A stretch of 64,000 bases of DNA. It comes from an uncultured virus (IMG/VR IMGVR_UViG_3300026521_000636) (lineage: Duplodnaviria; Heunggongvirae; Uroviricota; Caudoviricetes). This document shows, in pieces, positions 519 to 31,973 of the stretch (within the stretch, counting starts at the first letter, position 1; each line of letters starts with the position of its first letter). The notes under the pieces are model-generated. The model saw nothing but the letters and a program-made list of their open reading frames with translations, made no database searches and had not been told where the DNA came from. The position numbers and the translations under genes are program-made. The stretch lies in the IMG/VR virus record IMGVR_UViG_3300026521_000636; one strand, 5' to 3'.

Positions 519-2072
519 ATGGCTAAAACTAAATTAGTAAATGGTGTTAAACTTGATTATGTTGCCGGTTCTTTTGCCAGTTTTGCCAAAATTAATAATT
601 CTAATAAAGAACTGAAAGAAGAAAATATTAAAGATTATATAGGACTTATGAAATTTATAGAAGGTAAGCTCAAGGGTTATATAAATGTTAGCACTTTATT
701 TAATGCTTATCAAGAAGAAGGGGATGGTCGATCTATAAAAGAACATAATAATTTTGGTTATGATAAAGTTTATGCTGATTCTGGTGGATTACAAGTCCTT
801 ACAGCAGGTAAAACTATCAATGATGAAGTTAAAGAAAAAGTTTATACAGTCCAAGCTAAATATTCAGACTATGCTATGACATTTGATGAAATGCCTATAA
901 TGATAGCTAAAGACTTAGGTAAAAAATCAAAAATCGGCGATTATGGACAAGTCTTTGTTGATGAGTTAGTAGAGAAAAATGCGGAATTATCTGCAATGCA
1001 TATTCAAAAACAAATAGATATGTTTGAATCATTAAATACATCCACTAAAATTTTACCAATCATACATGGATATGACATTGATTCATATTTACGTTATGCT
1101 AAATCTATTTTTAATAACCTAGATCATATAGGACATCATATTCAAGGGATGTCTATTGCATCGTTAAGTGGTCATGCGGATAATAAAGTGGGGATAATGA
1201 AAGTATTTGACTTTGTGCCAAAGATATTAAATAGTGGTGAGATTAATCCTCAATATTTAGAACATATTCATTTACTAGGTGTTGCATCTTCACAAAGAAT
1301 AATACCTATTATTATGATGATTAAAAAAGGATTATTACCAATTAAAACACTTTCATTTGATAGCACCGCAATAACAAAAGCATACACATTTGGTAGAGCA
1401 TATCAGACCATAGAAGAATATAAAAATCCGAGGGACTTTAGTACAGAAGTAACATTAAAAAGTTATAAAAATAAAGAGTTTCCAAACATAAAACAATTAT
1501 ATCAGAGTATGTATGATACGTTTAAAGATTATGAAAATTTTATGTTTGATGATTGGGAAGATATAGCAAAACATTCACCAAATAATGGCGATAAACGGGC
1601 TTTAAAAGATCAATATTTGGAAGAAGGCTTAGAATATCAAAGAAAATACTTACAGCAAGTAAGGATAGCTAATCTATATCATCATTATACTTATGTTTCC
1701 ATGCTAGAAGGCTATATTGACGATGAACTTAGTATAACAGAATTGTTTGGTTATAATAAAACTGTTGAAACTATGATGCAATCATTTGAGAGTGTAAACA
1801 CACTTGAAGAATTATCAGAAATGTGCGAATATTTTTATAATTTTGCTAAAGTCGGTCGAACAGATTTAAGAATTAAAAAAGTAAAAACGGTTAAAGAGTT
1901 TAAAGAAAAATATGAAGAAGAAGGTATTGATGTATATGCGGAATTAGGTATCGACAAAGACGTTGAAATCCTAAGTGAAGAATTAAAAAAACCTTGGATT
2001 AAATCTTCAATAAAAAGAGCAAAAGGGGAAGATTATCCTCATGGTGAGGAACCAACCAATGCACTTTTTTAA
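519..2072 (+). CDS. TGT/DpdA-like guanine transglycosylase, paralog 1
   Basis: LFNAYQEE, YADSGGLQ, MTFDE, PIIHG, HIHLLG, SFDS match TGT-fold catalytic motifs; AAGGA RBS; QueE nearby. Confidence 0.8.
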   Translation: MAKTKLVNGVKLDYVAGSFASFAKINNSNKELKEENIKDYIGLMKFIEGKLKGYINVSTLFNAYQEEGDGRSIKEHNNFGYDKVYADSGGLQVLTAGKTINDEVKEKVYTVQAKYSDYAMTFDEMPIMIAKDLGKKSKIGDYGQVFVDELVEKNAELSAMHIQKQIDMFESLNTSTKILPIIHGYDIDSYLRYAKSIFNNLDHIGHHIQGMSIASLSGHADNKVGIMKVFDFVPKILNSGEINPQYLEHIHLLGVASSQRIIPIIMMIKKGLLPIKTLSFDSTAITKAYTFGRAYQTIEEYKNPRDFSTEVTLKSYKNKEFPNIKQLYQSMYDTFKDYENFMFDDWEDIAKHSPNNGDKRALKDQYLEEGLEYQRKYLQQVRIANLYHHYTYVSMLEGYIDDELSITELFGYNKTVETMMQSFESVNTLEELSEMCEYFYNFAKVGRTDLRIKKVKTVKEFKEKYEEEGIDVYAELGIDKDVEILSEELKKPWIKSSIKRAKGEDYPHGEEPTNALF

Positions 2073-2436
2073 TAAAATTAAATCATTTATAAAAGGATTA
2101 GAATTAACTAAATTCGATAAAATCTTCTTTATAGGATATATTAGTTTATGGATATATTATTTATTTAGTGGAATGAGTTATTTAACTGCTGGCGGTATAT
2201 TATTAATTCTTGGAGCATGGCTAGTTTTTAAAGGTGAAATTTTTGTTGCAACTTTAAACTATGTTATAGCCGATATAATGTGGGTTTTAAATGCTATTAA
2301 TATAGGTGATAATGAAGGTACTATTTTCATTATAATTGGTATGCTTTTAGGTATTGCAGCAACTTATAAAATGCAAATTGGATCTTTAGCAAAATCATTA
2401 AAAATAGAAAAAAATTGTAAAATAAAACTAAAATAA
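2059..2436 (+). CDS. small multi-pass membrane protein
   Basis: About 4 hydrophobic segments; ATG 2059 preceded by GAGGA is a likelier start than 2041. Confidence 0.65.
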   Translation: MHFFNKIKSFIKGLELTKFDKIFFIGYISLWIYYLFSGMSYLTAGGILLILGAWLVFKGEIFVATLNYVIADIMWVLNAINIGDNEGTIFIIIGMLLGIAATYKMQIGSLAKSLKIEKNCKIKLK

Positions 2437-2448
2437 AAAAGGATTAAT

Positions 2449-3213
2449 ATGATACCTATTATGGAAATGTTTGGCCCAACTATACAAGGTGAGGGTGCAA
2501 GAAGTGGTGTAATTTCATATTTTTTAAGAGTTGGTGGGTGTAATTTTACTTGTAAAGGTTTTGGTGTGGCATATACCGATCCTGATGGCAATGAAAAGTT
2601 TGGATGTGATAGTTATTATGCCGTTGACCAAAAATTTAAGAAGTCATGGGATTTTTTAAACTATAAAGAAATTGTTAATAAAATGAATATAATTCTGAAT
2701 AAAGGGGCTCATGGTATTTTTAAACCTGATATAATTATAACCGGTGGAGAACCACTAATGTATTGGAATAATGAAGACTTTCAAAACGTATTAATTTACT
2801 ATATATCAAGAGGTTATAAAATCACGATTGAAACTAATGGTAGTATTGATATTGATTTCACAAAAGATTATCAAAAAGAAATTATGTTTTCTATGTCGGT
2901 TAAATTAAAAAATAGTGGTGAAGCAGAACATAGAAGAATTAATATAAAAAATCTTACTAATATACTTGAAAATTCTAAATATAGTTATTTTAAATTTGTT
3001 ATTGGTAATGATATGAATGATGTAGAAAAAGAAATTATAGATATTTTAGACAGCATTCCATATTATACTGATGTTTTTGTAATGCCTATGGGAGAAACTA
3101 CCGATGGGATTGAAAAACACGCTTTAAAAACTGCTGAATTAGCTATTAAAAATAATTGGAAATATAGCGATAGATTACATATTAGATTATGGAATGATAA
3201 ACCGGGTGTTTAG
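2449..3213 (+). CDS. queE: 7-carboxy-7-deazaguanine synthase QueE (radical SAM)
   Basis: EMFGPTIQGEG, RVGGCNFTC...CDSYY (Cys motif with insertion, epsilonproteobacterial type), ITGGEP, IETNG, RLHIRLW. Confidence 0.93.
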   Translation: MIPIMEMFGPTIQGEGARSGVISYFLRVGGCNFTCKGFGVAYTDPDGNEKFGCDSYYAVDQKFKKSWDFLNYKEIVNKMNIILNKGAHGIFKPDIIITGGEPLMYWNNEDFQNVLIYYISRGYKITIETNGSIDIDFTKDYQKEIMFSMSVKLKNSGEAEHRRINIKNLTNILENSKYSYFKFVIGNDMNDVEKEIIDILDSIPYYTDVFVMPMGETTDGIEKHALKTAELAIKNNWKYSDRLHIRLWNDKPGV

Positions 3214-3230
3214 ATTTAAGAGGAAAATAT

Positions 3231-4580
3231 ATGAGTAAATTTAAAAATACAGAACTAATTGTCGATTATGTTCTTTCAGGATTCGGAGCTTCATTTCGAT
3301 TAGGCTCACCAAATGAAGCTTACGCTAGAGGTGTTGCAGAAGAATTATTTAGTTCTACTAAATTTTTAGAATCAGAAACTAGAGGCGATAATATTGAAAT
3401 GAGTGCATTGTTTAATGCATATACAGAAGATAGAATGGCGGAACAGTTAAATGGGTTTAATCTTAATTTAAGAGATCTATATACTGGGGGTATGTATGTT
3501 GATTCTGGAGGATTACAGGTTTTAACACAAGGCAAAACTATCGATGAAGAAATGAGAAAAAAAATATATAAAACTCAGGCTTCATATGGTGATTTTGCTA
3601 TGAGTTTTGATGTTATTCCTTCTGAATTTGTAAATGGCGAAAAAATATATTTTCCGGAGCGAGTAGCTGATGCGGGAACACAAGCTGGAAAAAATTTAAT
3701 TGAACAAATTAAAGCATTTAAAGAATACAATACCTCTTGTAAAATCATGCCAATCATTCAAGGATTAGGTGAAAGTGACATGGATTTATATGCTAATAAT
3801 ATGTTTAGCCAACTATCTAAAGATGAATTGGATTATATCACAAGTGTCGCTTTTGGTGGTGGTACAAGTGGTTTTGAATTTTTAAATAGAATGATGAATG
3901 CTCATCATTCAAAAATTTTATCACAAAAAATGAATCATGTGCATTTACTAGGGATTACAGGCTTTTCTAGACTATTACCGCCTATTATTGCAGCAATGAA
4001 TGGAATTCTTCCAGATGTTAATAGAATTTCTTTTGATAGTACAACAATATCAAAGACTTATGTATTAGGGATGGTATGGCCAGAAGTTGAGGATGTTATT
4101 TCTGGTAATGTTAAAGCTGGTGCAAGTACATCGTTAGGCAAAGTAAGAAATAAAACTGTTGAAGCTCATTATGAAAAAATGTGGAATTGGTGGAAAAAAA
4201 ATCCTAATAATATTTTTGATGGTGTTGAAGATCTTTTAGAACATTCCGTATATAACTCTAAAGGTTTTACAACTGGATACCAACAAACAGAAAATTTATC
4301 ATTAGAAGATGGAATCAAAACAATTACCCAAAAGCATGTTTTTGTATATTATAACACATATAATTTTATCAATATTTTAAAAGGATATATAAAAGGCGAG
4401 GTACCATTATCCAACTTGTTAGGTAAGAATCAAAAAGGTATTTTCTTATTTGAACAATTAGAGAGTATTACTGATGTAAACGATTATAATGAGTGGTTTA
4501 TAGATGTTAAAAAACATATAAAGATTGATGTTCCATCTGTTGGTTCAGATAAAGGACAATCAACAAATATTTTATTTTAG
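3231..4580 (+). CDS. TGT/DpdA-like guanine transglycosylase, paralog 2
   Basis: LFNAYTED, VDSGGLQ, SFD, PIIQG, HVHLLG, SFDS. Confidence 0.8.
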   Translation: MSKFKNTELIVDYVLSGFGASFRLGSPNEAYARGVAEELFSSTKFLESETRGDNIEMSALFNAYTEDRMAEQLNGFNLNLRDLYTGGMYVDSGGLQVLTQGKTIDEEMRKKIYKTQASYGDFAMSFDVIPSEFVNGEKIYFPERVADAGTQAGKNLIEQIKAFKEYNTSCKIMPIIQGLGESDMDLYANNMFSQLSKDELDYITSVAFGGGTSGFEFLNRMMNAHHSKILSQKMNHVHLLGITGFSRLLPPIIAAMNGILPDVNRISFDSTTISKTYVLGMVWPEVEDVISGNVKAGASTSLGKVRNKTVEAHYEKMWNWWKKNPNNIFDGVEDLLEHSVYNSKGFTTGYQQTENLSLEDGIKTITQKHVFVYYNTYNFINILKGYIKGEVPLSNLLGKNQKGIFLFEQLESITDVNDYNEWFIDVKKHIKIDVPSVGSDKGQSTNILF

Positions 4581-4589
4581 GTGATATTG

Positions 4590-6170
4590 ATGGCTACAAG
4601 TAAAAAACAAATAAATGGTATTACTTTAGATTATGTTTCTGGTTCATTACGACCTTTCTTAAAAATAGGTTCTGGTAGTACAGATGCTATAAAGCATGAG
4701 GGAGTTGAAGATTTTAAGAAACTACTAGATTGGTCTCAAACACATTTAAAAGGTTACTTTGTACTATCAACACTTTTTAATGCGTTTCAAGAAGAAAAAG
4801 ATGGTAAAGTATTAAAAGAAGAAAACAAACTTAATCATGACGCAATTTATGCCGATTCTGGTGGATTACAAGTCCTCACTAGAGGATTAGAAATTACAGA
4901 TGATATTAAATTGAAAGTATATGATACTCAAGCTAAATATTGTGATTTTGCCATGACATTCGATGAAATGCCTTTAAAAGTTATAGAAAATCAAGATCAA
5001 TTTGGTAAATCAATTATTGATAATAACAGGGTTGTTCATATCAAAGAAATGGTAGGTATATCTGCAAAAAATTCAGCAGCACATATTCAACAGCAAATTG
5101 ATGTATTTGAAAAACTTAAGACGAATACAAAAATATTACCTATTGTACATGGTTTTAGTGAAGAAACATATATCGAATACGCCGAAACAATTATGAAAAA
5201 CTTACATAATATTAAGGAACATATCCAAGGTATGGCTATTGCTTCATTATCAGCATCAGCGGATAATAAGGTAGGTATAATGAAAGTTTTTGATTATGTA
5301 CCAACTCTTATGAATGCTAAAGAGATAAAAGAAGAGTATAGACAACATGTCCACTTACTAGGAGTAGCTTCATATCAAAGAATAATTCCAGTTATGATGA
5401 TGGCTAAAAAGGGTATTTTTGATACCGTTAAAAGAATTTCATTTGATAGTACTGCACTTACAAAATCATATACATTTGGGCGTGTATATGCTAGTGTTGA
5501 AGAAATGAAAAATCCTAAAGATTATGAACCTCTTTTATCATTAAATCATTGGAAAGATCCTCATTCAAAAAATATTAGACAATTTTATAATAACGTACAC
5601 AATTTACTCAAAGACTACCCCGATTATATTTTTGAAGATGTTGAAGATTTGATGAACCATTCACAAAATAATGGTGAGAAATTAAAAGTTAGTGAACAAT
5701 TTAAAAAATATGGAACTGAATATGAAAGAAAATATCTGGCTCAAGTGAGATATAATAGCATTTATAATATGATTCAGTATTTAAGTGTTATTGAAGCTTA
5801 TTTAGAAGATGAACTGGCTGTAGCTGATATATTCTCATATAATGGGACAGTAAGATTTATGTTTGAAACCTTTGAGCATAATGCACATACAAAAGAAGAT
5901 TTTAAAGAGATGTGTAACTATTTTTATACAACGGCTACAACAGGAAGAACGAACCTCAATTATATAATAATGGACACTTTAGAAGAATTTGAAAAAAGTG
6001 AATATGGAAATAATCCCGATGTAAAATCGGACCCATTAGCCGAATTAGGAGTAGGGGAAGTACCAAAACATGAAAAAGGGTATGTTCGACCAGATCTTTT
6101 AGCTCGACGAGCTAAAAGAGCACCTAGAGATTTTAAAGAAGATGGAAATCCATCAGATTCTCTTTTTTAA
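4590..6170 (+). CDS. TGT/DpdA-like guanine transglycosylase, paralog 3 (closest to paralog 1)
   Basis: LFNAFQEE, YADSGGLQ, MTFDE, PIVHG, ADNKVGIMKVFD shared with paralog 1, HLLG, SFDS; ATG 4590 or GTG 4581 start. Confidence 0.8.
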   Translation: MATSKKQINGITLDYVSGSLRPFLKIGSGSTDAIKHEGVEDFKKLLDWSQTHLKGYFVLSTLFNAFQEEKDGKVLKEENKLNHDAIYADSGGLQVLTRGLEITDDIKLKVYDTQAKYCDFAMTFDEMPLKVIENQDQFGKSIIDNNRVVHIKEMVGISAKNSAAHIQQQIDVFEKLKTNTKILPIVHGFSEETYIEYAETIMKNLHNIKEHIQGMAIASLSASADNKVGIMKVFDYVPTLMNAKEIKEEYRQHVHLLGVASYQRIIPVMMMAKKGIFDTVKRISFDSTALTKSYTFGRVYASVEEMKNPKDYEPLLSLNHWKDPHSKNIRQFYNNVHNLLKDYPDYIFEDVEDLMNHSQNNGEKLKVSEQFKKYGTEYERKYLAQVRYNSIYNMIQYLSVIEAYLEDELAVADIFSYNGTVRFMFETFEHNAHTKEDFKEMCNYFYTTATTGRTNLNYIIMDTLEEFEKSEYGNNPDVKSDPLAELGVGEVPKHEKGYVRPDLLARRAKRAPRDFKEDGNPSDSLF

Positions 6171-6210
6171 AAATGTAAAATTAATATAAAATATTAAAAA
6201 AAGGATATAT

Positions 6211-7245
6211 ATGAAAATAGCTATTATTGGTGCTGGATGGTATGGATGTCATATAGCTTCAATTTTAAAATCGTACGCTGTTGATATAACTATTTTTGAA
6301 CAAGAAGATGATATTTTTAAACATGCATCATCAAAAAATCAAAATAGACTTCATTTGGGTTTTCATTATCCTAGATCTTCAATAACACGACTGCAGTCAA
6401 AACAGGGTTTTAAAAATTTTAAAAAAGAGTATGATTTTTGTTGTAGTCCTATAAGTAAAAATTTCTATGCAGTAGATAATCAACGATCTTTAATAGACTT
6501 TGAAACATTTAAAATTATTATGGAACACGATCTGGATTTTAAAATAAAAGATAATACGGACAGACTACAAAACTTATCTGGATTAATTAATACTAAGGAA
6601 GAAGTTATTAATTTTGATATTGCCATAGAACACTTTAAAGAATTATTGTCAGGCGATTTAAGATTAAACTGTAAAATTGAAAATGCAGATATTCAAAATT
6701 GTGATGATTATGTCCAAATTAAAGATGAAAATTTTGATTATTTAATCAACTGTACTTGGGCTACTTTTAGAAATAATTTCAATATTGACGCTTTTTATGA
6801 ATCATGTATTGTTTTACTTTATAAAACATCACATCACGAAAATGATTTCGCTATAACTATTATGGATGGTGAATTTGTATCTCTATTTCCATATACTGAA
6901 AACGGGGTGTACACACTCACATCTGTAAAAAATACAGTTCTAAAAAGAGATAAAAGTTATAAAAAAATTATAGATTTTCAAAATAATTTATCGGATGATT
7001 TTATACAAGAAATTATTAAAAAAATGGAAGCTGAAATGATATATTATTATCCAGATTTTTTAATAGATTTTGAATTTAAAGACTATTTTCTTACAACAAA
7101 AAGTAAACTTAATGTACAAACTGATTCTCGTGAAGTGGTAGTAAAACATAATAATCGAGAGATTTTTGTATTTTCTGGAAAAATAGATACTATCTTTGAA
7201 GCTGAAAAAGAAATTTTAAAAATACTAGGATTAAAAAATGAATAA
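6211..7245 (+). CDS. FAD-dependent oxidoreductase (DAO-like)
   Basis: N-terminal IAIIGAGWYG Rossmann motif, ASSKNQNRLHLGFHYPRS, C-terminal SGKI. Confidence 0.85.
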   Translation: MKIAIIGAGWYGCHIASILKSYAVDITIFEQEDDIFKHASSKNQNRLHLGFHYPRSSITRLQSKQGFKNFKKEYDFCCSPISKNFYAVDNQRSLIDFETFKIIMEHDLDFKIKDNTDRLQNLSGLINTKEEVINFDIAIEHFKELLSGDLRLNCKIENADIQNCDDYVQIKDENFDYLINCTWATFRNNFNIDAFYESCIVLLYKTSHHENDFAITIMDGEFVSLFPYTENGVYTLTSVKNTVLKRDKSYKKIIDFQNNLSDDFIQEIIKKMEAEMIYYYPDFLIDFEFKDYFLTTKSKLNVQTDSREVVVKHNNREIFVFSGKIDTIFEAEKEILKILGLKNE

Positions 7246-7906
7246 TAAAATATGTATCATTGGCGGTACCTCCAATATTTCAAAATCATTTATAAAAATG
7301 GTTGAAAATAATTTTGATATTATAACGGTTGGTAAAAGCTCTAATAATGATATTGAATTTGATATTAATAATGGAAATTTTAATAATATTAATAAAATAC
7401 CTTTAAATTGTTCGTATTATTTAATTGCTGCAGGCATATTATACCCAAAAAAGATTATCGAACAAACAAATAATGAGATTTTAAATAGTATATCTTTAAA
7501 TCTTTTATTTCCGACTTATTTAATTGAACAGATATTAGATATTAATGAAGATGTAAGAATTGTAGTGGTTGGTTCTGAATCGGGTAAAAAAGGTTCATAT
7601 GACACAACTTACTTTTTAAGTAAAGCAGCTTTAAAATCTTATATACAAGAAAAACATATTAAATCTAAAAACCAATCACTAAATATGATTGCTCCATCGG
7701 TTATACTGGATACAAAAATGACACAAGATCGGGACGATTTAGAAGAAGTATTAGAAAGAGCAAAAGATTTACCAAAAGAAAGATATTTAATGAGTGAAGA
7801 AGTCGCTAAACTTATTTATTATTTATTTTTTGAGGATTCAGGGTATATTAATAACGAAGTTATTAATATGAATGGTGGTAAATTTGCAAGAATGAATTAC
7901 AGATAA
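7238..7906 (+). CDS. short-chain dehydrogenase/reductase (SDR)
   Basis: IIGGTSNI nucleotide-binding loop, catalytic S and YxxxK (YFLSK), C-terminal INMNGG. Confidence 0.85.
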   Translation: MNNKICIIGGTSNISKSFIKMVENNFDIITVGKSSNNDIEFDINNGNFNNINKIPLNCSYYLIAAGILYPKKIIEQTNNEILNSISLNLLFPTYLIEQILDINEDVRIVVVGSESGKKGSYDTTYFLSKAALKSYIQEKHIKSKNQSLNMIAPSVILDTKMTQDRDDLEEVLERAKDLPKERYLMSEEVAKLIYYLFFEDSGYINNEVINMNGGKFARMNYR

Positions 7907-9356: not shown

Positions 9357-9394
9357 AATGATATTTGTATAATACATATAAAAAGGTTAAAAAA

Positions 9395-10144
9395 ATGAAA
9401 ATATACCAAATCGAAATAACAAATGCATGTCAATTTAGATGTGATTACTGCCCTAGAACAACAGCTATGACTAGAAAAGTAGGCTCTATGTCTAATGAAA
9501 CGATTAACAGAATAGCTGATGTACTAACTAGTGATTCAATTCGACTTCACCACTATGGCGAAAGTTTAATTGAGTTGGATAAAACTCTTTATGCGATTAA
9601 AGCATTAAAAAATAAAAACCCAGAATTGGTTATAGAATTAAATACAAATGGTGAGTACTTAACCCCAGAAACGACAGATAAACTATTTGAGGCCGGCCTT
9701 TCAAAAGTTAATTTATCATATCATTTCCCACCAAGTATTAAACACTTAAAAAATATTGATCCAAAATATAGAGAACGAATTGAAGTTATGAAAATAGCCC
9801 ACTTATCTGAAATTGAAAAGTATAAAAATGAGTTAAAAGAAGTAAAAGAAATAGGATACAAAGTAATCTTAAAACAATTAAGAGACTTAGGTCAAGTTAA
9901 TGCAGATAGTGCAGGAAAAGGTAATGCATGGAAAGAATGTTCTTTTATAAAAAATAATGAATTCGTAGTATTATGGGATGGACGTATTGTCACTTGTTGC
10001 GAAGTATTTGATGGTGAACCAGAAGAAATACTAGGATCAATTTTTGATGACTCTTTACCAGAAAAAAATAAATATATTTCTAAATGTGCTACTTGTATGG
10101 GTTATGGAAATGGCGATATTGAAACTGAAAAAATAAATATTTAA
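9395..10144 (+). CDS. radical SAM protein with SPASM/Twitch-like C-terminus
   Basis: CQFRCDYC (Cx3Cx2C), YGE, NTNG, C-terminal C..CC..CxxC; the track start 9365 falls in the TGTATAAT promoter so ATG 9395 is preferred. Confidence 0.88.
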   Translation: MKIYQIEITNACQFRCDYCPRTTAMTRKVGSMSNETINRIADVLTSDSIRLHHYGESLIELDKTLYAIKALKNKNPELVIELNTNGEYLTPETTDKLFEAGLSKVNLSYHFPPSIKHLKNIDPKYRERIEVMKIAHLSEIEKYKNELKEVKEIGYKVILKQLRDLGQVNADSAGKGNAWKECSFIKNNEFVVLWDGRIVTCCEVFDGEPEEILGSIFDDSLPEKNKYISKCATCMGYGNGDIETEKINI

Positions 10145-10205: not shown

Positions 10206-12686
10206 ATGAACGCAGATTTAGAAAAAACACATAGTACCTTACCAGCACACCCTGTTGGGCAGGCTATAACTACGAAAACCAAAGTAATAGAATTTGCTGA
10301 AAAAATCGTAAATTCTCAACTAGGAGAAATTACTGGCGCATTCATAGATACCGATACAATGCACCTTTGTTTAAAATATTCAAGTAGTAAAACTGCTCTC
10401 ACAGCAAAAATGAATAATAAAAAAGAAGATATTTTAACCCCTATTTTCTTAAAAGCAAAAGGTAAAAATATTCAAGATTATACCTTTAATGTAATTCTAA
10501 ACTCATCCGATAGTTCAACAAAAATACGTACAGATGCAGCATTAATTGAACATGGAATATTATATGCTATTGAATCAAAATTTTCTGAATCCATTTCAGA
10601 AAAAAAGATTATTGATCTATTGAATGAACTTCGTAATAAACACTTGAAAAGTTTTTATACAGCTTTAAAAGATGACAAACTATATCTTAATTTAGTAAAA
10701 CAAAATTACATGCCTGTAACAGATATTATAATGACTGGCAAAATAATAGAAAACCCAATATTACTTGAAGCTTATGCTGATGAAGCATATATAAGTGAGA
10801 TGGATATTCTGGATATTATAGAAAAATTTGGTCACTATATGCGCTCATACAAAATGAAACTCAAAGAGGGTGTTAATATCAATGATGATATATTTGATGA
10901 TAAATCAAAAATGGTAAAGCCACAATTTGTAGAATTTGAATATATATCAGACCACCTATATAATTTATTTGATGTAGAAATTGCTGCTAGAATCGATACA
11001 TCTTCTACCGAACCAATAAGTGCTATTACTCATATGAAATTAGAAAAAGCATTTGAAATGATTGGACAAAATGGTAATGTTGAAGATGGTCTAGGTAATA
11101 ATAGAGCGAAGAAAAAGTGGAATGATCCGGCTAGAATTGGTTTATTTTATGATCAACTAAACACTTATATAAATGAAATGGAATCAGGGTCATTTAATCA
11201 TCATGCCCGTCACGATGCGTACGTAACAGCGACAAAACAACGTACTCTACTCTATAGACATTTTGAAGAACATATAACTAAAGATTTTGAGATAGATAAA
11301 GTTAGTGGTAAGTTGAAAGAAGTAAAAGTTAAATCAATTACTCCTTCAAACACTAAACTTATAATTAGTTCAGGGAATATAACTGTTGCTAATTCGCAGC
11401 ATTTAGTTGAAAATAGATTACTCATAAAACAGTTGGCTTATTATTTTATCGAAACATCAATATATGGCAAATTTCATTATAATCCATGGGAACGTGATGA
11501 ATTAATTAAAGAAGTTTATGATTGCAATAAAGGTTTGATTGATAAAGTTTTAGATAGATTTAAAGAACATTTTTTATCAAAAAAATTCAAAGATACTGAT
11601 AAATCAAAAATAAAAGAGATGATTGAAAGATGGGGCGATGATAGAATCCCTGTAAGATTTGTAACTGAAGAGGGTGATATAATCAACCAATTTATAACTT
11701 CATCAAATACAGGTTTATCGGCTACAAAAAACCAAGAAATACTAGCTCCATATAAAACAGAGCAAAATACTATTAGAAGTATTATAGCCGATTATCAGAT
11801 TGATAATAAAAATATTTCATTAGCATTAACACATAGTGATATTAGAAAAATTTCTGCTAAGTTAAATTATAATGAAAATATAATAACATTAGTTAATCTT
11901 ATATCTGATAATCCTCTGTATTGGGATGATGAACAGAAAAAAACAAAAATCGATTCTATGAACACAGTTGATTGTACTTATACAGTATCACTCACTAAAA
12001 AAATGGCTAAATCCTTTGCCCAATTATTTATTAAGGGTGATGATAAACTTCAAGATAACTTGTTAAAGTATGAAAAACTTATAGAGACAGAATTGGCTAA
12101 AGACGACTACGATGAATTGATACTAAAATCATTTGAAAATAGCGTCGCCGATTTAAAAAGCCAATTAGAAGGACATTACAGTCATCATAGACTATTCCAT
12201 TTGAAAAAATATGCCCACCTACAATTAGAAGCTATTATTAAGGTCATTAATGTTTTTGAAAAAGTATATAAAATGGACCAATATAATGAACGTATGAGAG
12301 ATTTGACAATTGCAAGCAACGATAATACTGTGTTAGTTTCAGAACACGACTATACTAAAGGTCGCTTGGTCGGTTTATTCTTTAATGCTTTAAAAATATT
12401 AAAAACTAAAAAAGCCAATTATTGGCATGATGAAGATGAAATGATTCGATATTTTAAATTGTTTATAGAAACCCTAGAAGATGTCCGATTATTATATAGA
12501 AATATTAATGGCGACATTGTAACGGTAACAAAATTATTCAAAGAGACCATATATCCTAAGAATATAGATACCAACAATAGTAATATTGTATTATCTACCT
12601 TTAAAGTATCAGTAACCGATCTTACAGATAATATTATAAAAGTGTTTAAATCGAAAATAATAAATACTAATCAAAATAATGTATAA
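10206..12686 (+). CDS. large hypothetical protein, possibly AIPR/ParB-like central region
   Basis: 826-aa ORF with AGGAGG RBS; NITVANSQH...IPVRFV...ITSSNT loosely resembles AIPR motifs (weak). Confidence 0.6.
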   Translation: MNADLEKTHSTLPAHPVGQAITTKTKVIEFAEKIVNSQLGEITGAFIDTDTMHLCLKYSSSKTALTAKMNNKKEDILTPIFLKAKGKNIQDYTFNVILNSSDSSTKIRTDAALIEHGILYAIESKFSESISEKKIIDLLNELRNKHLKSFYTALKDDKLYLNLVKQNYMPVTDIIMTGKIIENPILLEAYADEAYISEMDILDIIEKFGHYMRSYKMKLKEGVNINDDIFDDKSKMVKPQFVEFEYISDHLYNLFDVEIAARIDTSSTEPISAITHMKLEKAFEMIGQNGNVEDGLGNNRAKKKWNDPARIGLFYDQLNTYINEMESGSFNHHARHDAYVTATKQRTLLYRHFEEHITKDFEIDKVSGKLKEVKVKSITPSNTKLIISSGNITVANSQHLVENRLLIKQLAYYFIETSIYGKFHYNPWERDELIKEVYDCNKGLIDKVLDRFKEHFLSKKFKDTDKSKIKEMIERWGDDRIPVRFVTEEGDIINQFITSSNTGLSATKNQEILAPYKTEQNTIRSIIADYQIDNKNISLALTHSDIRKISAKLNYNENIITLVNLISDNPLYWDDEQKKTKIDSMNTVDCTYTVSLTKKMAKSFAQLFIKGDDKLQDNLLKYEKLIETELAKDDYDELILKSFENSVADLKSQLEGHYSHHRLFHLKKYAHLQLEAIIKVINVFEKVYKMDQYNERMRDLTIASNDNTVLVSEHDYTKGRLVGLFFNALKILKTKKANYWHDEDEMIRYFKLFIETLEDVRLLYRNINGDIVTVTKLFKETIYPKNIDTNNSNIVLSTFKVSVTDLTDNIIKVFKSKIINTNQNNV

Positions 12687-12710: not shown

Positions 12711-13064
12711 ATGGCTGTTAAGCAATTAAATAATTTTGTATGGATTACAACGAGTTTTGAGGGGTTTCATAAATACCCCGATGCTCCTGAAGAGGTTTCA
12801 TTTTTAAAAGAAAGACACAGACATATATTCAAACTTAAAATTTGGATTGAAGTATTTCATAATGATAGAGACATTGAATTTATTCTTTTTAAAAGATTTA
12901 TTGATTCATTAATAGTTGAAAATGAAATGGATTATAAATCATGTGAAATGATTTCTGATGATCTCGCAAATTGGATTAATGAAAAATTTCCAAAGCGGAC
13001 TATAAAAATTGAAGTTTCTGAAGATGGAGAAAATGGCTCTTATAAAGAATATGAAGCTATATAG
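12711..13064 (+). CDS. queD: QueD-like / 6-pyruvoyl-tetrahydropterin synthase-like T-fold protein
   Basis: FEGFH, HRH metal motif, RDIEF, SCE, EVSEDGENG; size and context. Confidence 0.7.
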   Translation: MAVKQLNNFVWITTSFEGFHKYPDAPEEVSFLKERHRHIFKLKIWIEVFHNDRDIEFILFKRFIDSLIVENEMDYKSCEMISDDLANWINEKFPKRTIKIEVSEDGENGSYKEYEAI

Positions 13065-23865: not shown

Positions 23866-24373
23866 ATTAACAGAACAATATCGACAAACAGATTCTCATT
23901 TTTATTTTTGGAATACTATATATTCGCAATGGTACACATCAAAAAATCAAATCAATGATAATGGTGTAAGCTATCCAAATGCTGAGAAATATATGATGGT
24001 TGCAAAAGCTAAACATTTCGATGATGATAAAATATTAGAAAAAATGTTAAAAACTGATAACCCAAAGGAAGTTAAAGCACTTGGTAGAAGGGTTAAAAAT
24101 TTTAACGATGAAAGTTGGGATAAAGTTAAGGAAGATATTGTTACCAAAGCAAATTACCTTAAATTTAAACAAAACTCAGATTTATTAAAGATACTCATGG
24201 AACATAAAGATTTAATTCTTGTAGAGGCTTCACCAGTTGATAAAATTTGGGGTATTGGTTTACATTTTTCCGATAATAAAGTACTGGATGAATCAAAATG
24301 GCGTGGAAAAAATCTACTAGGAAAATGTATAATGAAAGCTAGAGATTTAATATTAAAAGAAGAGGAAAAATAA
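23858..24373 (+). CDS. NADAR family protein (YbiA-like)
   Basis: SQWY, AEKYMM..KA..F.D, KALGRRVKNF, KFKQN, LVEASPVDKIWGIG, GKNLLG. Confidence 0.92.
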   Translation: MDKLTEQYRQTDSHFYFWNTIYSQWYTSKNQINDNGVSYPNAEKYMMVAKAKHFDDDKILEKMLKTDNPKEVKALGRRVKNFNDESWDKVKEDIVTKANYLKFKQNSDLLKILMEHKDLILVEASPVDKIWGIGLHFSDNKVLDESKWRGKNLLGKCIMKARDLILKEEEK

Positions 24374-27319: not shown

Positions 27320-27321
27320 TA

Positions 27322-27843
27322 ATGAAATTAAAAGACTTAATCAATGAAGAAAAAGAAACTAAAGGGACTTATGCAGGTGTATTACTTAGTCAAGACGATG
27401 AAGATAAAATCATCTCAATAGTGAAAGAAATGGGAATACCTAATCCTATTCCTCGAAAAGATATTCATATTACACTTTTGTATAGTAGAAAGGTACTACC
27501 AGATTATAAACCAAATGAAAATTTAGATATTTGGGCATATCCGACTGAATTTCATATTTTTAATGGTGGTAATGGTAAAGATATTCTTGTATTAAAGATT
27601 GACTCTCCTGATTTAGTTAAAAGACATAAAGAGTTGATGAAAGAACATGAAGCTACTTATGATTTCCCAGAATATATCCCACATATCACATTAAGTTATG
27701 ATTTAGAAGATTATTTAAATACAGAAGATGATAGACTTAAAGCCATTAATGAAAAATTTAAAAGTTTATTACCTAAAGAGTTTCATTTAGTTAGAGAATA
27801 CGTAGAAGATTTAAATTTAGATTGGGAGAATAGTAATGACTGA
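27322..27843 (+). CDS. acb1: anti-CBASS 2H phosphoesterase Acb1 (T4 gp57B-like)
   Basis: Two HxT motifs in T4 57B-like context: PNPIPRKDIHITLLYSR, LVL..DS, ATYDFPEYIPHITLSY, REY.E.L.LDW. Confidence 0.85.
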   Translation: MKLKDLINEEKETKGTYAGVLLSQDDEDKIISIVKEMGIPNPIPRKDIHITLLYSRKVLPDYKPNENLDIWAYPTEFHIFNGGNGKDILVLKIDSPDLVKRHKELMKEHEATYDFPEYIPHITLSYDLEDYLNTEDDRLKAINEKFKSLLPKEFHLVREYVEDLNLDWENSND

Positions 27844-28783
27844 AAATCTGTTAAATTATATTAAAGAGTTATCACTTAATGATAAAAAAACTTTAATTCA
27901 AAAAGTCACTAAGCTATTTGAAGAAGGTGGTGAACTTTCTAAAGTAGTTTTACCATTTGAAGGAGCTTATGCTACAAATCATAGAGTAGTAAACAAACAA
28001 AAGATTCTTGAAGAATGTGCTGATGTTTTTCTAGTAAACCAAAGTATAATGTATAGTGCCGGGTTTACTGATGAAGAATTCAATGATATGGTTTTAAAGA
28101 AAGCTCAAGTATGGAATGGATTACAAGTTAAAGAAGATAGAGCATTAGCAAAAAGTGATTTGATGCCTTATGAAATTCATATTACAGTTAATGCTGAAAA
28201 TGGCATTGATATAGAACAATATAAAAAAGATTGTAAATTTATCGGTGTTAAACCTATTGTACTTGATTTACAAGATAAATCCGGTGAACCTGTTATGGAT
28301 GATGTAATGACTTCATCTAAAATTGTTGGTAATAATGGTGAAGCATTTGAAGAAATGAAAAGAATTTCTAATCATCTAACTTCACTAGGTTATAATGTAA
28401 TTAGAGAAAAGATTGAAGCCAGTTATTGGCATACTAAAGCACCTTTTAAAATTGATGGCGATACAAAAATGCCAGAGGGATGCTATTTTGAATGCCACCT
28501 AAACGTTTCTTGTACAGATGAAAAATTACCTCTACTATCAACTATAGCAAAAAATACAAATTGTCATCTTTCAAAAAATAAATTTAAAGTATTTGATGAT
28601 GGAAGCTTTACAATTATGATGACTTATCGAAGCTATGACCAAATGTTTGAAGATTTTGAAGATAGTTTAAAATGGATTAAAAAATGTTTAATTACAGATA
28701 ATTTTGAATTAGAAAAAGAAGTAGTGGAATTTAGTATCTATGATACAAAAATTACTCATGACTCAAAATGGTTGGAAGCGTAA
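27836..28783 (+). CDS. MazG-like nucleotide pyrophosphohydrolase domain fusion
   Basis: KLFEEGGEL...EECAD N-terminal MazG motif; C-terminal YEIHITV / FECH duplicated domain. Confidence 0.65.
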   Translation: MTENLLNYIKELSLNDKKTLIQKVTKLFEEGGELSKVVLPFEGAYATNHRVVNKQKILEECADVFLVNQSIMYSAGFTDEEFNDMVLKKAQVWNGLQVKEDRALAKSDLMPYEIHITVNAENGIDIEQYKKDCKFIGVKPIVLDLQDKSGEPVMDDVMTSSKIVGNNGEAFEEMKRISNHLTSLGYNVIREKIEASYWHTKAPFKIDGDTKMPEGCYFECHLNVSCTDEKLPLLSTIAKNTNCHLSKNKFKVFDDGSFTIMMTYRSYDQMFEDFEDSLKWIKKCLITDNFELEKEVVEFSIYDTKITHDSKWLEA

Positions 28784-29126
28784 ATTGAATACTAATCTTC
28801 TTGAGAAAAAAGCTGATGAATTAATAGACAATGCAGGAATTGTTTGTTTATGCGGTAGTACAAAATTTAAAAAAGAATTTGAAATAGCTACTTCAATATT
28901 ATCCAAAAAAGGCTTTATTGTATTAAGTGTTGCACAATTTTCCCATCATGATAATTTACCTTTAACCGAATTTGAAAAAATAACTTTTAATAAGTTACAT
29001 TTTAAAAAAATAGAATTAGCAGATTTAGTTTATATTGTCAATCCAAATAATTATATTGGTGAATCTACAAAGGATGAAATTGAATATGCTAAATCTCTAA
29101 ATAAAAAAATACAATATATGTTTTGA
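28758..29126 (+). CDS. hypothetical protein, NDT/DUF4406-like
   Basis: CLCGSTKF...H..KI..AD...N...YIGEST..EIEYA; start uncertain. Confidence 0.6.
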   Translation: MTQNGWKRKLNTNLLEKKADELIDNAGIVCLCGSTKFKKEFEIATSILSKKGFIVLSVAQFSHHDNLPLTEFEKITFNKLHFKKIELADLVYIVNPNNYIGESTKDEIEYAKSLNKKIQYMF

Positions 29127-29157
29127 ATTTGTATAATATAATAAAAAAAGGAAGAAT

Positions 29158-29316
29158 ATGGATCATAAAATTCGAGAATTATTAGAAAAAATCCAACATT
29201 TTACAAATAAAGCCGTAGGTTTACTACAAGAAGAAAAATATGATGAAGCCGCTTTTTTCTTTAATCTAAGTTCTAGTTTAAATTCTGAAATCGCATTACT
29301 AATAAAGAGAGATTAA
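29158..29316 (+). CDS. small hypothetical protein (52 aa, not in ORF track)
   Basis: TGTATAAT promoter 29130, AAGGAAG RBS, MDHKIRELLEK... Confidence 0.55.
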   Translation: MDHKIRELLEKIQHFTNKAVGLLQEEKYDEAAFFFNLSSSLNSEIALLIKRD

Positions 29317-29318
29317 TA

Positions 29319-30650
29319 GTGATTACATTAGAATATGTTGCTAGTGCTTGGATGAATTTTAATTTCCTAAATTCAAAAGACCCGGAATTATTAAAATGGG
29401 CATCTGAAAATTATACTGCAAATTTAAAATATATGATGAGTAAATTAGAAAATAATATTTTTGAATTTTCCGGACTTTATAATGCTTTTTATGAACCCGA
29501 ACAATATGAGCGTATTTTAGAATGTGGAATAAGTGATCCGAGTTGCGGACATAAACATGTTTATGCTGATAGTGGTGGTCTTCAGATGATGAAGCAAAAT
29601 CTAAATATTACTGAAGAGATTAAAAAAAATATAATGCAAAATCAAGCAAAATACTCAGATTTTGCATTTATTTTTGATGAAATACCATCTTATAATGTTG
29701 ATGATACACGAGTATTTGTGAATGAATGGGTAAAACCTTACGGTGAAAGAACAGGACAAAATTTAAATACATTATTAAAAGTTATAAAAGATAATAATTC
29801 TCATACAAAAGCAATACCTATTGTTCAAGGTAGAGGAAGAGAGCAAATAACTGAATTTACAAACGCAATGTTATCTCAAATATCAAAGAACGATTTAAAA
29901 TATATTGAAGCTTTTGCTATGGGTAATGCCCATGGAAATGGTTTTGGTTTATTGCAATCTACTAGTACTTTTTTATCTATGAAAAATATCGATAATAAAT
30001 TTAAAAAACACATTCACTTACTTGGAGTAACAGGTTTTGATAGGATGATTCCAATTCTTCAATTAGTAAAAAATGGTTTATTTGAGCATACCGAAAAGAT
30101 TTCATTTGATAGCAGTTATCATGCTAAAACCTATGCTTTTGGCAATCTTCAAAAAAGCGTTGAATGGTGTATTAATGGTATGCAAGATGATAAATTAGGT
30201 TTAAAAAGAAATAAAATGACAGAAGACTTTTTTAAAGAATTAGATGATTTTTGGAAAAATTCTCCCACGTATAATATTGATGAATTTGATGACTATTTTA
30301 AATATTCATCATGGGATAAAGATAAAATCAACACACCAAATAGACAATTAGCTGAGCGAGACGTAGAAGCATATAAAAAAAATGTAAATATTATTCAAAA
30401 TTATATTTTCTTAAATATGTACAAATATTTTGAAGTTTTAAATAAATTTATGACTGATGAACTTACTATGGAGCAGATTCTCCATAGTAAAAAAACTCTA
30501 AAGATATTCCAACCATTACAAAATGTATATTCACTTGATGAATTATATGATTGGGAAAATTATGCCGCATCAAATTATAAAGTTCAAGTTAGTAGCTCTA
30601 TCGATAAAGCACCTTTTGACATTGATAAAGTAACTGATGTTTTATTTTAA
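29319..30650 (+). CDS. TGT/DpdA-like guanine transglycosylase, paralog 5
   Basis: LYNAFYE, YADSGGLQ, FDE, PIVQG, HIHLLG, SFDS. Confidence 0.8.
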   Translation: MITLEYVASAWMNFNFLNSKDPELLKWASENYTANLKYMMSKLENNIFEFSGLYNAFYEPEQYERILECGISDPSCGHKHVYADSGGLQMMKQNLNITEEIKKNIMQNQAKYSDFAFIFDEIPSYNVDDTRVFVNEWVKPYGERTGQNLNTLLKVIKDNNSHTKAIPIVQGRGREQITEFTNAMLSQISKNDLKYIEAFAMGNAHGNGFGLLQSTSTFLSMKNIDNKFKKHIHLLGVTGFDRMIPILQLVKNGLFEHTEKISFDSSYHAKTYAFGNLQKSVEWCINGMQDDKLGLKRNKMTEDFFKELDDFWKNSPTYNIDEFDDYFKYSSWDKDKINTPNRQLAERDVEAYKKNVNIIQNYIFLNMYKYFEVLNKFMTDELTMEQILHSKKTLKIFQPLQNVYSLDELYDWENYAASNYKVQVSSSIDKAPFDIDKVTDVLF

Positions 30651-30662
30651 TAGGAAACATTT

Positions 30663-31973
30663 ATGACAACAAATTTAGAATTCGTTTTTTCAGCTTTTCC
30701 TCATTATATGAAAATGTGTAGGCAACAGGGTGAGATGTATAAAGCAACAGCCCAGTCAGTCCAAACATCAATAGCATATATGAGATCAAAACTCAAAGAT
30801 AATGTATCTGTAAGTGCTTTATTTAATGCATATACAGAGGAAGATTGTGCTAGAAATGCATCTAATAGATTTACAGGTATGAAATCCATTATTGGTAGTA
30901 ACCTCTATGCTGATAGTGGTGGATTACAAATGATGACTTTAGGACATACAGTTGATGAAGCACAAAGAAAAAAAATTTATGAAACCCAAATAAAATATGC
31001 GACACATGCTATGAGTTTTGATGAAATTCCCGGTATTTTCATTGATAAAAAAAAATATTATAAACCAGATACCGTATATAACTGTGGCGTTATTTCTGGG
31101 GGAAATTTACTTGAACAGTATAATTTTTTCAAAGAGGCTAGATCAAATACAAAAATTGTGCCAATTATTCAGGGATGGGGTTATAAAGATACAGATCTAT
31201 TTACTCAAGGTTTGATGACAAATTGTAAAAATATTTGGAACGAATTTGATATGTTAGCTGCTGGATTTCAAAGTTCATCAATTTGGGGAACGGCTCAAAG
31301 AGCAATAGATATATATACAAATCCATTACTCAAAAAACAATTTTTAAATCATTATCACATGCTTGGTATGAGTGGTTATAAAAGAATAATCCCTATGATA
31401 ATGATACTTAAAAGCGGATTAATAAAAGATATGAAGACACTTTCATTTGATAGTTCCTCAATATCTATGACATATGTAATGGGCAACGTTATAAAATCGA
31501 CTGATGATTTAATCAATAATAGAAAATATGAATTGGGGAAAGAAAGAACTAAAGAAGTTGAGGATTACTATAAAGAGCTGTATGAATTCTGGAAAGATGC
31601 ACCCAATTGCAATTTTAAAGATTGGGAAGACTTATTAGAAAATTCTCAATGGAATAGTAGGGGTGTTAAGAGTGCAAAAGCTCGTCATGATGAAACCAAT
31701 GATATTAATGAATCATTAAAATATCTGACACAAGAACAATATTTTATTTTCTATAATGTATATAAGTATGCTATGGTTCTTGAAGATTTTTTAGAGGGTA
31801 ATATAGAATTATCAGATATATTTAAAGGTAAGGATTTAGAATTATTCAGTCAATTAGAAAAAATAGATAATATAGATGATTTCTATGAATGGCAAGATTA
31901 TGTAAATAAAACACAAAATATAAAATTAGAAATATTTGAGAAAGATAATGATTTTTCAAATATTTTATTTTAA
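30663..31973 (+). CDS. TGT/DpdA-like guanine transglycosylase, paralog 6 (closest to paralog 4)
   Basis: LFNAYTEE, YADSGGLQ, SFDE, PIIQGWG, AGFQS, HMLG, SFDS. Confidence 0.8.
   Translation: MTTNLEFVFSAFPHYMKMCRQQGEMYKATAQSVQTSIAYMRSKLKDNVSVSALFNAYTEEDCARNASNRFTGMKSIIGSNLYADSGGLQMMTLGHTVDEAQRKKIYETQIKYATHAMSFDEIPGIFIDKKKYYKPDTVYNCGVISGGNLLEQYNFFKEARSNTKIVPIIQGWGYKDTDLFTQGLMTNCKNIWNEFDMLAAGFQSSSIWGTAQRAIDIYTNPLLKKQFLNHYHMLGMSGYKRIIPMIMILKSGLIKDMKTLSFDSSSISMTYVMGNVIKSTDDLINNRKYELGKERTKEVEDYYKELYEFWKDAPNCNFKDWEDLLENSQWNSRGVKSAKARHDETNDINESLKYLTQEQYFIFYNVYKYAMVLEDFLEGNIELSDIFKGKDLELFSQLEKIDNIDDFYEWQDYVNKTQNIKLEIFEKDNDFSNILF

Follow-up and report, generated by a model that had tools for sequence, protein, structure and literature searches.

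The stretch of DNA considered here (64,000 nucleotides; below, the window) covers positions 97350-161349 of a linear virus record of 224,467 bp (IMG/VR IMGVR_UViG_3300026521_000636, or G000; estimated to be 85% complete, about 27% G+C). It contains six paralogous genes for DpdA-like proteins, i.e., putative transglycosylases that would put a 7-deazaguanine base into DNA in exchange for guanine; genes for the synthesis of such bases accompany them (Table 1). We know of no route of 7-deazaguanines into DNA other than DpdA. The six-copy island belongs to an uncultured phage of about 224 kb, and megablast with 20 kb of the window found no match among cultured phages. It is a real, unusual variant of a known system, with DpdA copies of the DpdA2 lineage and a pathway of the DpdL type. 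Coordinates below are window positions unless the record or another genome is named.

Six DpdA-like genes and their lineage

The six proteins (436-529 residues) can be aligned from end to end, with 26-47% identity to paralog 1. The alignment has 36 invariant columns, including L.NA..E, DSGGLQ, FD..P, PI..G, H.H.LG and SFDS, and the three catalytic-motif aspartates are retained in all copies. None of the invariant columns is a cysteine; therefore, the CxCxxC...H zinc motif is absent. A preliminary description of the window, made from its open reading frames (ORFs), had claimed six paralogs with common motifs, the lack of a Cys/His zinc motif and the subgroups 1+3, 4+6, 2 and 5; the full-length alignment confirms the first two claims, and the alignment and a neighbour-joining tree reproduce the third. 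All six match phrog_10773 (function unknown; E 1e-36 to 1e-61), and a profile of the six applied to the whole 224,467-bp record recovered exactly these six copies. The observation is real and cannot be chance.

The sequence libraries assign no fold to these proteins: the Pfam and NCBIfam scans gave no tRNA-guanine transglycosylase (TGT) match for the six, a profile search of Protein Data Bank (PDB) sequences found no TGT, and with Pfam PF01702 no protein of the genome is matched at E<=10 (14 of 14 control genomes matched). Therefore, fold and profile methods were needed. The AlphaFold model of paralog 5, built on an alignment of 53 relatives, has a predicted local distance difference test (pLDDT) of 92.1 and a predicted template-modelling score of 0.91; the best 50 PDB matches found with it by Foldseek are all TGTs and the DNA preQ0 insertase DpdA (7ui4), and the top match is the heterodimeric mouse enzyme 7b2i. 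In this model, helices replace the zinc subdomain. The hhalign comparison of the family profile with E. coli Tgt (94.3% probability, E 1e-7) pairs DSGGLQ with DSGGFQ, FDEIP with FDECTP, PIVQG with GIIQG and HLLGV with YLMGVG. A TGT-like fold, a check named beforehand in the preliminary description, was thus obtained with AlphaFold, Foldseek and hhalign alike, and the modelling supports a TGT fold with catalytic aspartates for the six proteins. The SFDS aspartate, which lies just past the hhalign block, would by its motif and position be the Tgt nucleophile. A variable segment after "A.G" is set against the AVGGLAVGE loop of E. coli Tgt; in TGT structures, this loop borders the base pocket on the side of the 7-substituent.

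By blastp, all six match the DpdA2 of Vibrio phage VH7D (E 4e-19 to 3e-27, 26-31% identity over 240-400 residues) and the DpdA of Acidovorax phage ACP17 (E 4e-16 to 1e-30); for paralog 1, the values are 2e-22 and 7e-28, respectively. None matches the DpdA3 of Cellulophaga phage phiST or E. coli Tgt at E<=10. We infer from its position between FolE and QueF-QueC that the VH7D gene is the DpdA2 of the published work; the subfamily assignment of the ACP17 protein is likewise presumptive. The DpdA2 family was defined as one missed by PSI-BLAST from the phage 9g DpdA and detectable by HHpred (PMC6884629), and the six copies match this definition since they escape sequence searches yet are found by profile. 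In E. coli, VH7D DpdA2 put preQ1, preQ0 and a little 7-carboxy-7-deazaguanine (CDG) into DNA, and the DpdA2 phages are reported to modify <0.1% of G (PMC10516641). Sequence similarity thus supports DNA-modifying DpdA2 enzymes as the nearest characterised relatives. The genes for 7-deazaguanine synthesis adjoin the copies, with QueE between paralogs 1 and 2 and DpdL before paralog 4. By analogy, the six enzymes would exchange guanine in DNA for a 7-deazaguanine base.

The likeness to the DpdA2 of Vibrio phages nt-1 and VH7D includes the lineage, a TGT fold invisible to standard TGT models and the adjacent deazaguanine synthesis genes. The differences concern the copy number, the position in the tree and the pathway. 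A tblastn search with paralog 5 in 50,697 phage records gave 71 records, each with a single place of similarity; these are the Vibrio schizo-T4 phages (KVP40, VH7D, phi-Grn1, ValKK3), the Stenotrophomonas Moby group, Pseudomonas pf16, and phages of Acidovorax, Xanthomonas and Synechococcus. The earlier remark that characterised phages usually carry one DpdA is thus correct for this subfamily (71/71), whereas the phage considered here has six copies from a clade of at least seven orthogroups. Its proteins form a branch of their own apart from the single-copy proteins in the neighbour-joining tree, and its pathway (DpdL, with no QueC or QueF found) differs from the preQ1 or G+ route of the DpdA2 phages. 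Literature listings and the text available from PMC10516641 and PMC6884629 yielded no account of a phage with more than one DpdA. In comparison with the tRNA-guanine transglycosylases (Tgt, ArcTGT, QTRT1/QTRT2), identity is about 13%, and the six copies have a helical C-terminal domain instead of the zinc site; those enzymes act on tRNA, whereas the substrate of the six is probably DNA.

A profile search of sequence databases gave 149 DpdA relatives, the best 120 of which were used for the orthogroups and for the tail counts given below; for comparison of gene order, 74 metagenome loci were gathered around DpdA relatives. In the neighbour-joining tree, the six window proteins belong to one clade but to separate orthogroups (OG) with orthologs on other contigs. 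Among the matches listed, there are at least 21 other members of OG1, 7 of OG2, 3 of OG3, 2 of OG4 and 5 of OG5, and none of OG6; a further group without a window copy, OGx, has at least 17 members. Several long contigs among the listed relatives carry at least two DpdA copies. One of these relatives, G001 (IMG/VR, 306 kb), has only 42 of 320 ORFs in common with the window genome. At least four copies are present in it and stand side by side as two pairs, one being OG2-OG1, with QueE next, and the other OGx-OG4.

The pocket loop is conserved within each orthogroup and is specific to the group: IASL.GHADNKVG in OG1, OG3 and OGx, where His also replaces Gln in PIxHG; A.GG...SEFE in OG2; A.GF in OG4; AAGFQSSS in OG6; ACGNAH.NGFG in OG5; and GGIAMGAAALGKG in the single-copy proteins. 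The ratio of nonsynonymous to synonymous substitution rates (dN/dS) against the sister genome is 0.02, 0.02, 0.02, 0.03, 0.05 and 0.05 for paralogs 1-6 (dS 0.3-0.56; the value for paralog 4 refers to the first 782 nt of its long frame only), and 0.03 for GroEL. The copies are thus ancient, separately conserved and constrained, which fits functional specialisation.

Paralog 4 is not one plain ORF. The preliminary description gave start positions for six genes, and all six are present; however, the ORF from 14455 stops at 14547. This frame (A) begins with ATG and ends in ...LKLELVISGIP-TAG, and the -1 frame (B), which is open over 14502-16001 and has no ATG, GTG or TTG before 14691, continues with L-GYFKLRS...; the uninterrupted OG4 orthologs read ...SG(I/V)PGYFKL. 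The interruption occurs at one codon boundary as a 2-nt insertion (TAG and the -1 frame) or a 9-nt insertion with an in-frame TGA (loci L131, L134, L135, L111 and L112). The frameshift reads CCT-TA-GGC in the window and the sister genome and CCC-TA-GGC in L134/L135 (64% identical); the in-frame TGA of L111/L112 is found in CCG-TGAAGACTA-GGA, and four other loci are uninterrupted (CCN-GGN). Among 112 distinct DSGG.Q frames of all loci, the interruption is confined to OG4 genes, where it persists in diverged phages despite strong purifying selection on the gene.

Sequencing error was rejected as the cause, since the same frameshift is found in the sister genome, in L134/L135 and in three further runs, whose contigs, from other samples, have no indel at the site. 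A pseudogene was rejected on the dN/dS of 0.03. Of the substitutions between the window and the sister genome, two of the three that precede the site are synonymous when read in frame A, and all eight that follow it are synonymous when read in frame B. We also rejected +1 slippage and gene-60-type hopping, for which the resulting frame or the landing codon does not fit the sequence; a stimulatory RNA structure downstream of the shift site was not found (z -0.41). As candidate explanations, we consider slippage of peptidyl-tRNA-Pro by -1 at the stop codon, production of the enzyme in two parts (a 30-aa peptide and the rest) and deliberate low-level expression. Separately, a poly-C tract upstream of the gene (14303) has one additional base in one X4 contig and one base fewer in the X3 contig.

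The C-terminal tail

All six copies end in ...[ST][ND]xLF, and the tail is disordered in the model of paralog 5 (pLDDT <50, residues 439-443). LF is the very end of the protein in 56 of the 120 relatives listed, and [LIMF]F followed by at most two residues is found in 105 of them, as opposed to 23 of the 320 ORFs of the window genome. Nine of these 320 ORFs end in LF: the six copies, the GT1-family glycosyltransferase (GT) of the island, RIIA and one 534-aa protein of another family. An LF motif (SLESLFA, DLFG, DLFSFT, etc.) is also present in the last seven residues of 14 of the 16 listed homologs of this GT (the exceptions are P0139 and P0142). The relative G001 has the same tail on RNase HII (..KTTDILF, gene at 149405-150019) and on a DUF5591/ArcS-like protein (..SPSNSLF, 300388-301131). 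In archaea and eukaryotes, RNase HII is one of the classical clients of the clamp.

In T4/RB69, the gp45 clamp has a hydrophobic pocket that takes up the tail of the gp43 polymerase (PMC3012046; PDB 1b8h). The LF tail resembles the gp43 tail in the extreme C-terminal position, in the acidic-then-hydrophobic L..LF pattern and in the predicted docking site; the difference is that the gp43 tail sits on a polymerase and the LF tail considered here on putative DNA-modifying enzymes. The polymerase and DpdA tails are alike in four of the four T4-like relatives examined: SLDDLFE and TLDELFE, respectively, in ACP17, TLEDLFS and SLEELFT in G002, TLEDLFS and TLEDLFA in G003, and TLDDLF and TLPEDF in G004.

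The predicted complex of the gp45-like clamp of G003 with the last 45 residues of its DpdA has a score of 0.66, whereas the three controls reach 0.00 at best; a score of 0.66 or better is obtained for 51 of 78 solved complexes and for 2 of 108 mismatched pairs. The runs agree in 100% of contacts (partner pLDDT >=51), which join tail residues 412-422 to clamp residues 32, 35-39, 105-108, 195-197 and 210-217. Considering that the RB69 complex of clamp and polymerase peptide (1b8h) is already solved, this result may only show the likeness. With this reservation, the modelling suggests that the LF tail probably tethers the copies to the DNA-replication clamp. In the searchable literature, no paper connects DpdA to the sliding clamp; as far as the listings show, both terms occur together in a general review and in a genome announcement.

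Conserved hydrophobic C-termini were also noticed in two other families of the record. Seven ORFs end in ...Y.P....(D/N)(I/L)F(V/I/L)F (e.g., record 6918-7442(-), 10238-10996(-), 87128-88732, 197838-198305(-), 206338-207081(-) and 217292-217636), and the ending ...PE(I/L)F(I/L), or a near variant of it, is present in six small ORFs (record 8675-9037, 28896-29219, 38255-38524, 39107-39469, 151275-151817 and 174855-175289).

Pathway genes and other neighbours

Table 1. Genes of the island in order of position in the window
Feature	Position	Strand	Remarks
Paralog 1 (OG1)	519..2072	+	DpdA2-type; PIxHG; ...GHADNKVG loop; tail ...PTNALF
Small hydrophobic protein	2041..2436	+	function unknown
QueE-like radical SAM protein (7-carboxy-7-deazaguanine synthase)	2449..3213	+	phrog_2076 5e-56; Pfam Fer4_12/Radical_SAM
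Paralog 2 (OG2)	3231..4580	+	DpdA2-type; tail ...STNILF; stop abuts paralog 3 start
Paralog 3 (OG3)	4581..6170	+	DpdA2-type; GTG 4581 or ATG 4590; tail ...PSDSLF
Flavin adenine dinucleotide (FAD)-dependent oxidoreductase (DAO family)	6211..7245	+	Pfam PF01266 1.4e-7
Short-chain dehydrogenase/reductase (SDR)	7238..7906	+	Pfam adh_short_C2 3.5e-9; NCBIfam SDR models below cut-off
GT1-family glycosyltransferase, 479 aa	7917..9356	+	Pfam PF00534 2.5e-6; tail ...GSELLF
Radical SAM/SPASM enzyme	9365..10144	+	Pfam Radical_SAM 1.6e-14, SPASM 5.6e-4
826-aa protein, family unknown	10206..12686	+	homolog only in sister genome
DpdL (QueD paralog, proposed CDG decarboxylase)	12711..13064	+	117 aa; LxxxHRHxF
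GT-B (GT4-like) protein, 362 aa	13073..14161	+	AlphaFold and Foldseek; adjoins DpdL
Paralog 4 (OG4), first 30 codons	14455..14547	+	frame A, ...LKLELVISGIP, then TAG; good ribosome-binding site
Paralog 4 (OG4), remainder	14544..16001	+	-1 frame; tail ...AMNDLF
MazG-like pyrophosphatase	27836..28783	+	phrog_1247 2.5e-39; precedes paralogs 5-6
DUF4406/nucleoside 2-deoxyribosyltransferase-like (weak match)	28740..29126	+	Pfam PF14359 2.3e-4, 21.9 bits vs cut-off 22
Paralog 5 (OG5)	29319..30650	+	DpdA2-type; ...GNAHGNGFG loop; tail ...VTDVLF; copy with AlphaFold model
Paralog 6 (OG6, sister of OG4)	30663..31973	+	DpdA2-type; tail ...FSNILF

With respect to the two possible starts of paralog 3, the database relative P0001 begins with MATSKK, which corresponds to the start at 4590.

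The presence of QueE among the paralogs, as claimed earlier, is supported by the PHROG and Pfam matches; the best NCBIfam matches are all QueE models with scores under the cut-offs. The gene 12711-13064, previously called QueD-like, is DpdL by signature and homology rather than QueD: it reads ..FLKERHRHIFKL.., where LxxxHRHxF replaces the CxxxHGH of QueD, and this is the signature of DpdL, the proposed CDG decarboxylase (PMC10516641). Its protein is 38.5% identical to phiST CGPG_00067 (E 2e-15) and 41.6% to ACP17 DpdL (E 2e-26), and its dN/dS against the sister genome is 0.03. The true QueD/PTPS gene is found at record 90756-91358, i.e., 6 kb upstream of the window and 7 kb upstream of paralog 1. 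The small hydrophobic protein was considered as QueD and rejected; its homolog lies near QueE in seven metagenome loci (L106, L107, L108, L109, L116, L117 and, adjoining QueE, G001). Neither the Pfam scan of 270 record ORFs nor tblastn with the phage versions detected FolE (GTP cyclohydrolase I), QueC or QueF. With QueD, QueE and DpdL present and no QueC found, one would expect CDG as the free base, and also 7-deazaguanine provided that DpdL has the proposed CDG decarboxylase activity.

The closest parallel for the pathway is phiST (DpdA3, DpdL, a MazG-like protein and FolE/QueD/QueE), which has DpdL, QueD, QueE, the MazG-like gene and the lack of QueC in common with the window phage and has the same expected base, 7-deazaguanine. 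The phiST DNA contains 2'-deoxy-7-deazaguanine (dDG) at 302,000 per million nucleotides (Table 1 in PMC10516641). A gene of the MazG-like type stands beside DpdL in the phiST deazaguanine cluster (CGPG_00068) and between QueE and DpdA in locus L122. The transglycosylase of phiST is different: a 259-aa DpdA3, which, as stated above, none of the six matches. Also, phiST lacks the GT-B partner of DpdL, and FolE, which is listed for the DpdL-type phages (PMC10516641), was not found in the window genome. As an aside, a CxxCxxCC protein (record 28167-28868) was tried as a DpdM-like methylase; it has no similarity to the VH7D gene that follows QueC, whose own identity as DpdM is uncertain, and the lead was dropped.

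The GT-B protein next to DpdL has an AlphaFold pLDDT of 91.1, and its top Foldseek match is BshA (6d9t, 9.7e-11), followed by glycogen synthase, Gtf3 and MshA. Homologs of GT-B and DpdL are adjacent in 24 of the 74 metagenome loci and in cultured phages, namely ACP17, the PA5oct group, Sinorhizobium phage Phosso, Xanthomonas BUDD/X1 and Burkholderia BCSR5 (the GT-B gene is at 84803-85831 in ACP17, KY979132.2, and at 224613-225458 in PA5oct, MK797984.1). ACP17 has the gene order QueD-FolE-x-DpdA-GT-DpdL-QueE and shares with the window phage the DpdA lineage (E down to 1e-30), DpdL and the GT-B neighbour (31.7% identical, with 99% of the query aligned); it differs in being T4-like, in having one DpdA, which ends in a polymerase-like tail, and in the presence of FolE. 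The word "glycosyltransferase" does not occur in the available main text of the paper that defines DpdL (PMC10516641). Since the GT-B protein has no LF tail, we suspect that it acts on a free base or a small molecule. Possibly, this protein is what the E. coli experiments lacked for the reconstitution of dDG synthesis.

The other neighbours named in the preliminary description (two GT-B enzymes, an FAD/SDR pair and a radical SAM gene) are also corroborated by Pfam, AlphaFold and Foldseek; the closest solved relative of the radical SAM/SPASM enzyme is BtrN (PDB 4m7t, 1.3e-6). The 826-aa protein has no Pfam, PHROG, NCBIfam or PDB match, and its atlas matches are all under 0.9, with nothing usable among them. 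The block of the FAD oxidoreductase, SDR, GT1-family enzyme, radical SAM enzyme and 826-aa protein is found in the window phage and the sister genome, and is absent from G001 and all other loci; therefore, it is no core part of the multi-DpdA system. The neighbours named earlier thus stand as genes, whereas the link of the block to deazaguanine, which we infer from its position and from the tail of the GT1-family enzyme, is less certain. The tail makes this GT a candidate DNA glycosyltransferase that probably acts on DNA.

Division of work among the copies

We presume, with fair though far from complete confidence, that the island serves 7-deazaguanine modification of DNA and that its six DpdA copies are tethered to a clamp and share out the work, with DNA context or partner as a more probable criterion than the base. 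FolE of the host (or one from the unsampled part of the genome), followed by QueD and QueE, would provide free CDG, which DpdL would probably decarboxylate to 7-deazaguanine. After replication, the DpdA copies would swap guanine in double-stranded phage DNA for 7-deazaguanine or a derivative; the ...[ST][ND]xLF tail would tether each copy to the replication processivity factor, so that writing follows the fork, and the GT1-family enzyme with the same tail would probably act on DNA as well. Six old orthogroups with pocket loops of their own (in two groups with His for Gln) would reflect a division of work, and together the copies would reach a coverage beyond that of one DpdA2.

The preference for context or partner over base comes from the comparison with G001, which has QueC (by tblastn) and a DUF5591 protein and no DpdL; DUF5591 is the core domain of ArcS (PMC10516641). 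G001 therefore probably makes preQ0/G+, whereas the window phage probably makes 7-deazaguanine. OG1, OG2 and OG4 are present in both phages with conserved loops; we read this as a sign that the copy number is not tied to a particular base, and division by DNA context or partner appears preferable. Of the earlier proposal of different specificities, the specialisation itself agrees with the old, constrained orthogroups; the variant with different bases is opposed by the occurrence of these three orthogroups in phages with unlike pathways.

It is tempting to propose that the copies are subunits of hetero-oligomeric transglycosylases, as in QTRT1/QTRT2, with adjacent pairs (2+3 and 5+6 in the window; OG2+OG1 and OGx+OG4 in G001) forming the working enzymes. 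The paralog 2 stop (4580) abuts the paralog 3 start (4581/4590), paralogs 5 and 6 are 12 nt apart, G001 likewise has two adjacent pairs, TGTs work as dimers (PMC6884629), and the top Foldseek match is a heterodimer. However, the three aspartate motifs are intact in all six copies, as are the remaining invariant residues, unlike in a non-catalytic subunit, and the pairings in the window differ from those in G001, so we consider this unlikely. A smaller chance still is given to redundancy in chemistry and target, where the copies would be an arms-race buffer for different hosts, temperatures, infection stages or DpdA inhibitors. Counter-defence genes do lie in the window (Acb1, 27322-27843; NADAR, 23858-24373), and the copies stand in three separate groups, perhaps expressed at different times; nevertheless, redundancy rarely keeps six copies at a dN/dS of 0.02-0.05 with group-specific loops across distant phages.

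Some or all copies could instead act on phage or host tRNA, e.g., to shield anticodon loops from host nucleases. The TGT fold agrees with an RNA target, and so does the gene content: the phage has 22 tRNAs, including Tyr-GTA, Asn-GTT, two Asp-GTC and His-GTG, as well as tmRNA and many genes related to tRNA or RNA repair (Hen1, Pnkp-like, RNA ligases, Thg1-like, AspRS, EF-Tu, SmpB). The proteins, however, have neither the zinc subdomain nor a PUA domain, their tail resembles the clamp tail of a DNA polymerase, the DpdL/MazG context is that of phiST, whose DNA carries dDG, and the nearest tested relatives modify DNA (PMC10516641). We regard an RNA target as improbable. On the other side, it is doubtful whether one may go as far as a "writing crew" in large vent phages, i.e., up to seven clamp-riding DpdA enzymes and finishing enzymes (the GT here, the ArcS-like protein in the relative), each DpdA with its own contexts, which would replace G near-completely or in a pattern by more than one hypermodified base, the base in this phage possibly being oxidised, reduced and glycosylated by the block, and paralog 4 being dosed by a conserved translational recoding at CCN-TA-GGN.

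Several points weigh against the modification of DNA by clamp-tethered, specialised copies. The chemistry is read from genes alone, and the phage is uncultured; it encodes tRNA-Tyr, tRNA-Asn, tRNA-Asp (two genes) and tRNA-His, which are the classical TGT substrates. The fold model covers one of the six copies (paralog 5), the orthogroup tree has no support values, and a different specificity of the copies is suggested by the loops only. Since its frame is interrupted, paralog 4 may be made at a low level or in two pieces. As for the pathway, QueC or FolE could be in the missing part of the record, which is 85% complete. The dpdL and dpdA of phiST or ACP17 in E. coli gave no detectable dDG (PMC10516641). 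The clamp complex was predicted with the proteins of G003, i.e., of a relative, and VH7D DpdA2 does not end in the LF tail. No clamp or T4-like polymerase was found in the window genome (PF09116, PF02916, PF02768 and tblastn), so that tethering in this phage is presumed. The T4 alpha-glucosyltransferase reportedly binds gp45. According to a 2025 preprint (10.64898/2025.12.06.692756), the gp45 binding of the T4 DNA glucosyltransferase was not reproduced.

The target sites of DpdA and its efficiency, which ranges from <0.1% to 100% of G, could be explored with six or seven diverged, constrained copies in one genome, since these allow a direct comparison. If the role of the LF tail is true, it would provide a mechanism by which post-replicative base exchange keeps pace with replication, and a sequence marker for other DNA-acting modification enzymes, e.g., the 450-aa glycosyltransferase family.

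Apart from the island, the gene content of the phage is unusually like that of a cell: it includes GroEL (24377-26002), GroES, DnaJ, GrpE, EF-Tu, SmpB with tmRNA, AspRS and an actin-like protein. The RNA-repair genes of the record (Hen1, Pnkp-like, RNA ligases and Thg1-like) also include Ro60/TROVE, and there are NAD salvage genes. Between the DpdA groups lie the genes for the anti-CBASS phosphodiesterase Acb1 (Pfam 1e-33) and for a protein with a NADAR domain (Pfam 5e-48). Signalling is represented in the record by four GGDEF proteins, a GGDEF-EAL protein (window 54502-56679), an HDOD protein and a NIT-MCP chemoreceptor. At 44577-47088, 47705-49114 and 51781-53202 there are a PhoH-like gene, apparently interrupted by a gene for a homing endonuclease, and intein-like segments in a helicase and in a DnaB-like helicase; a TnpB/Cas12f-like (OrfB_IS605) gene is found at record 45833-47023.

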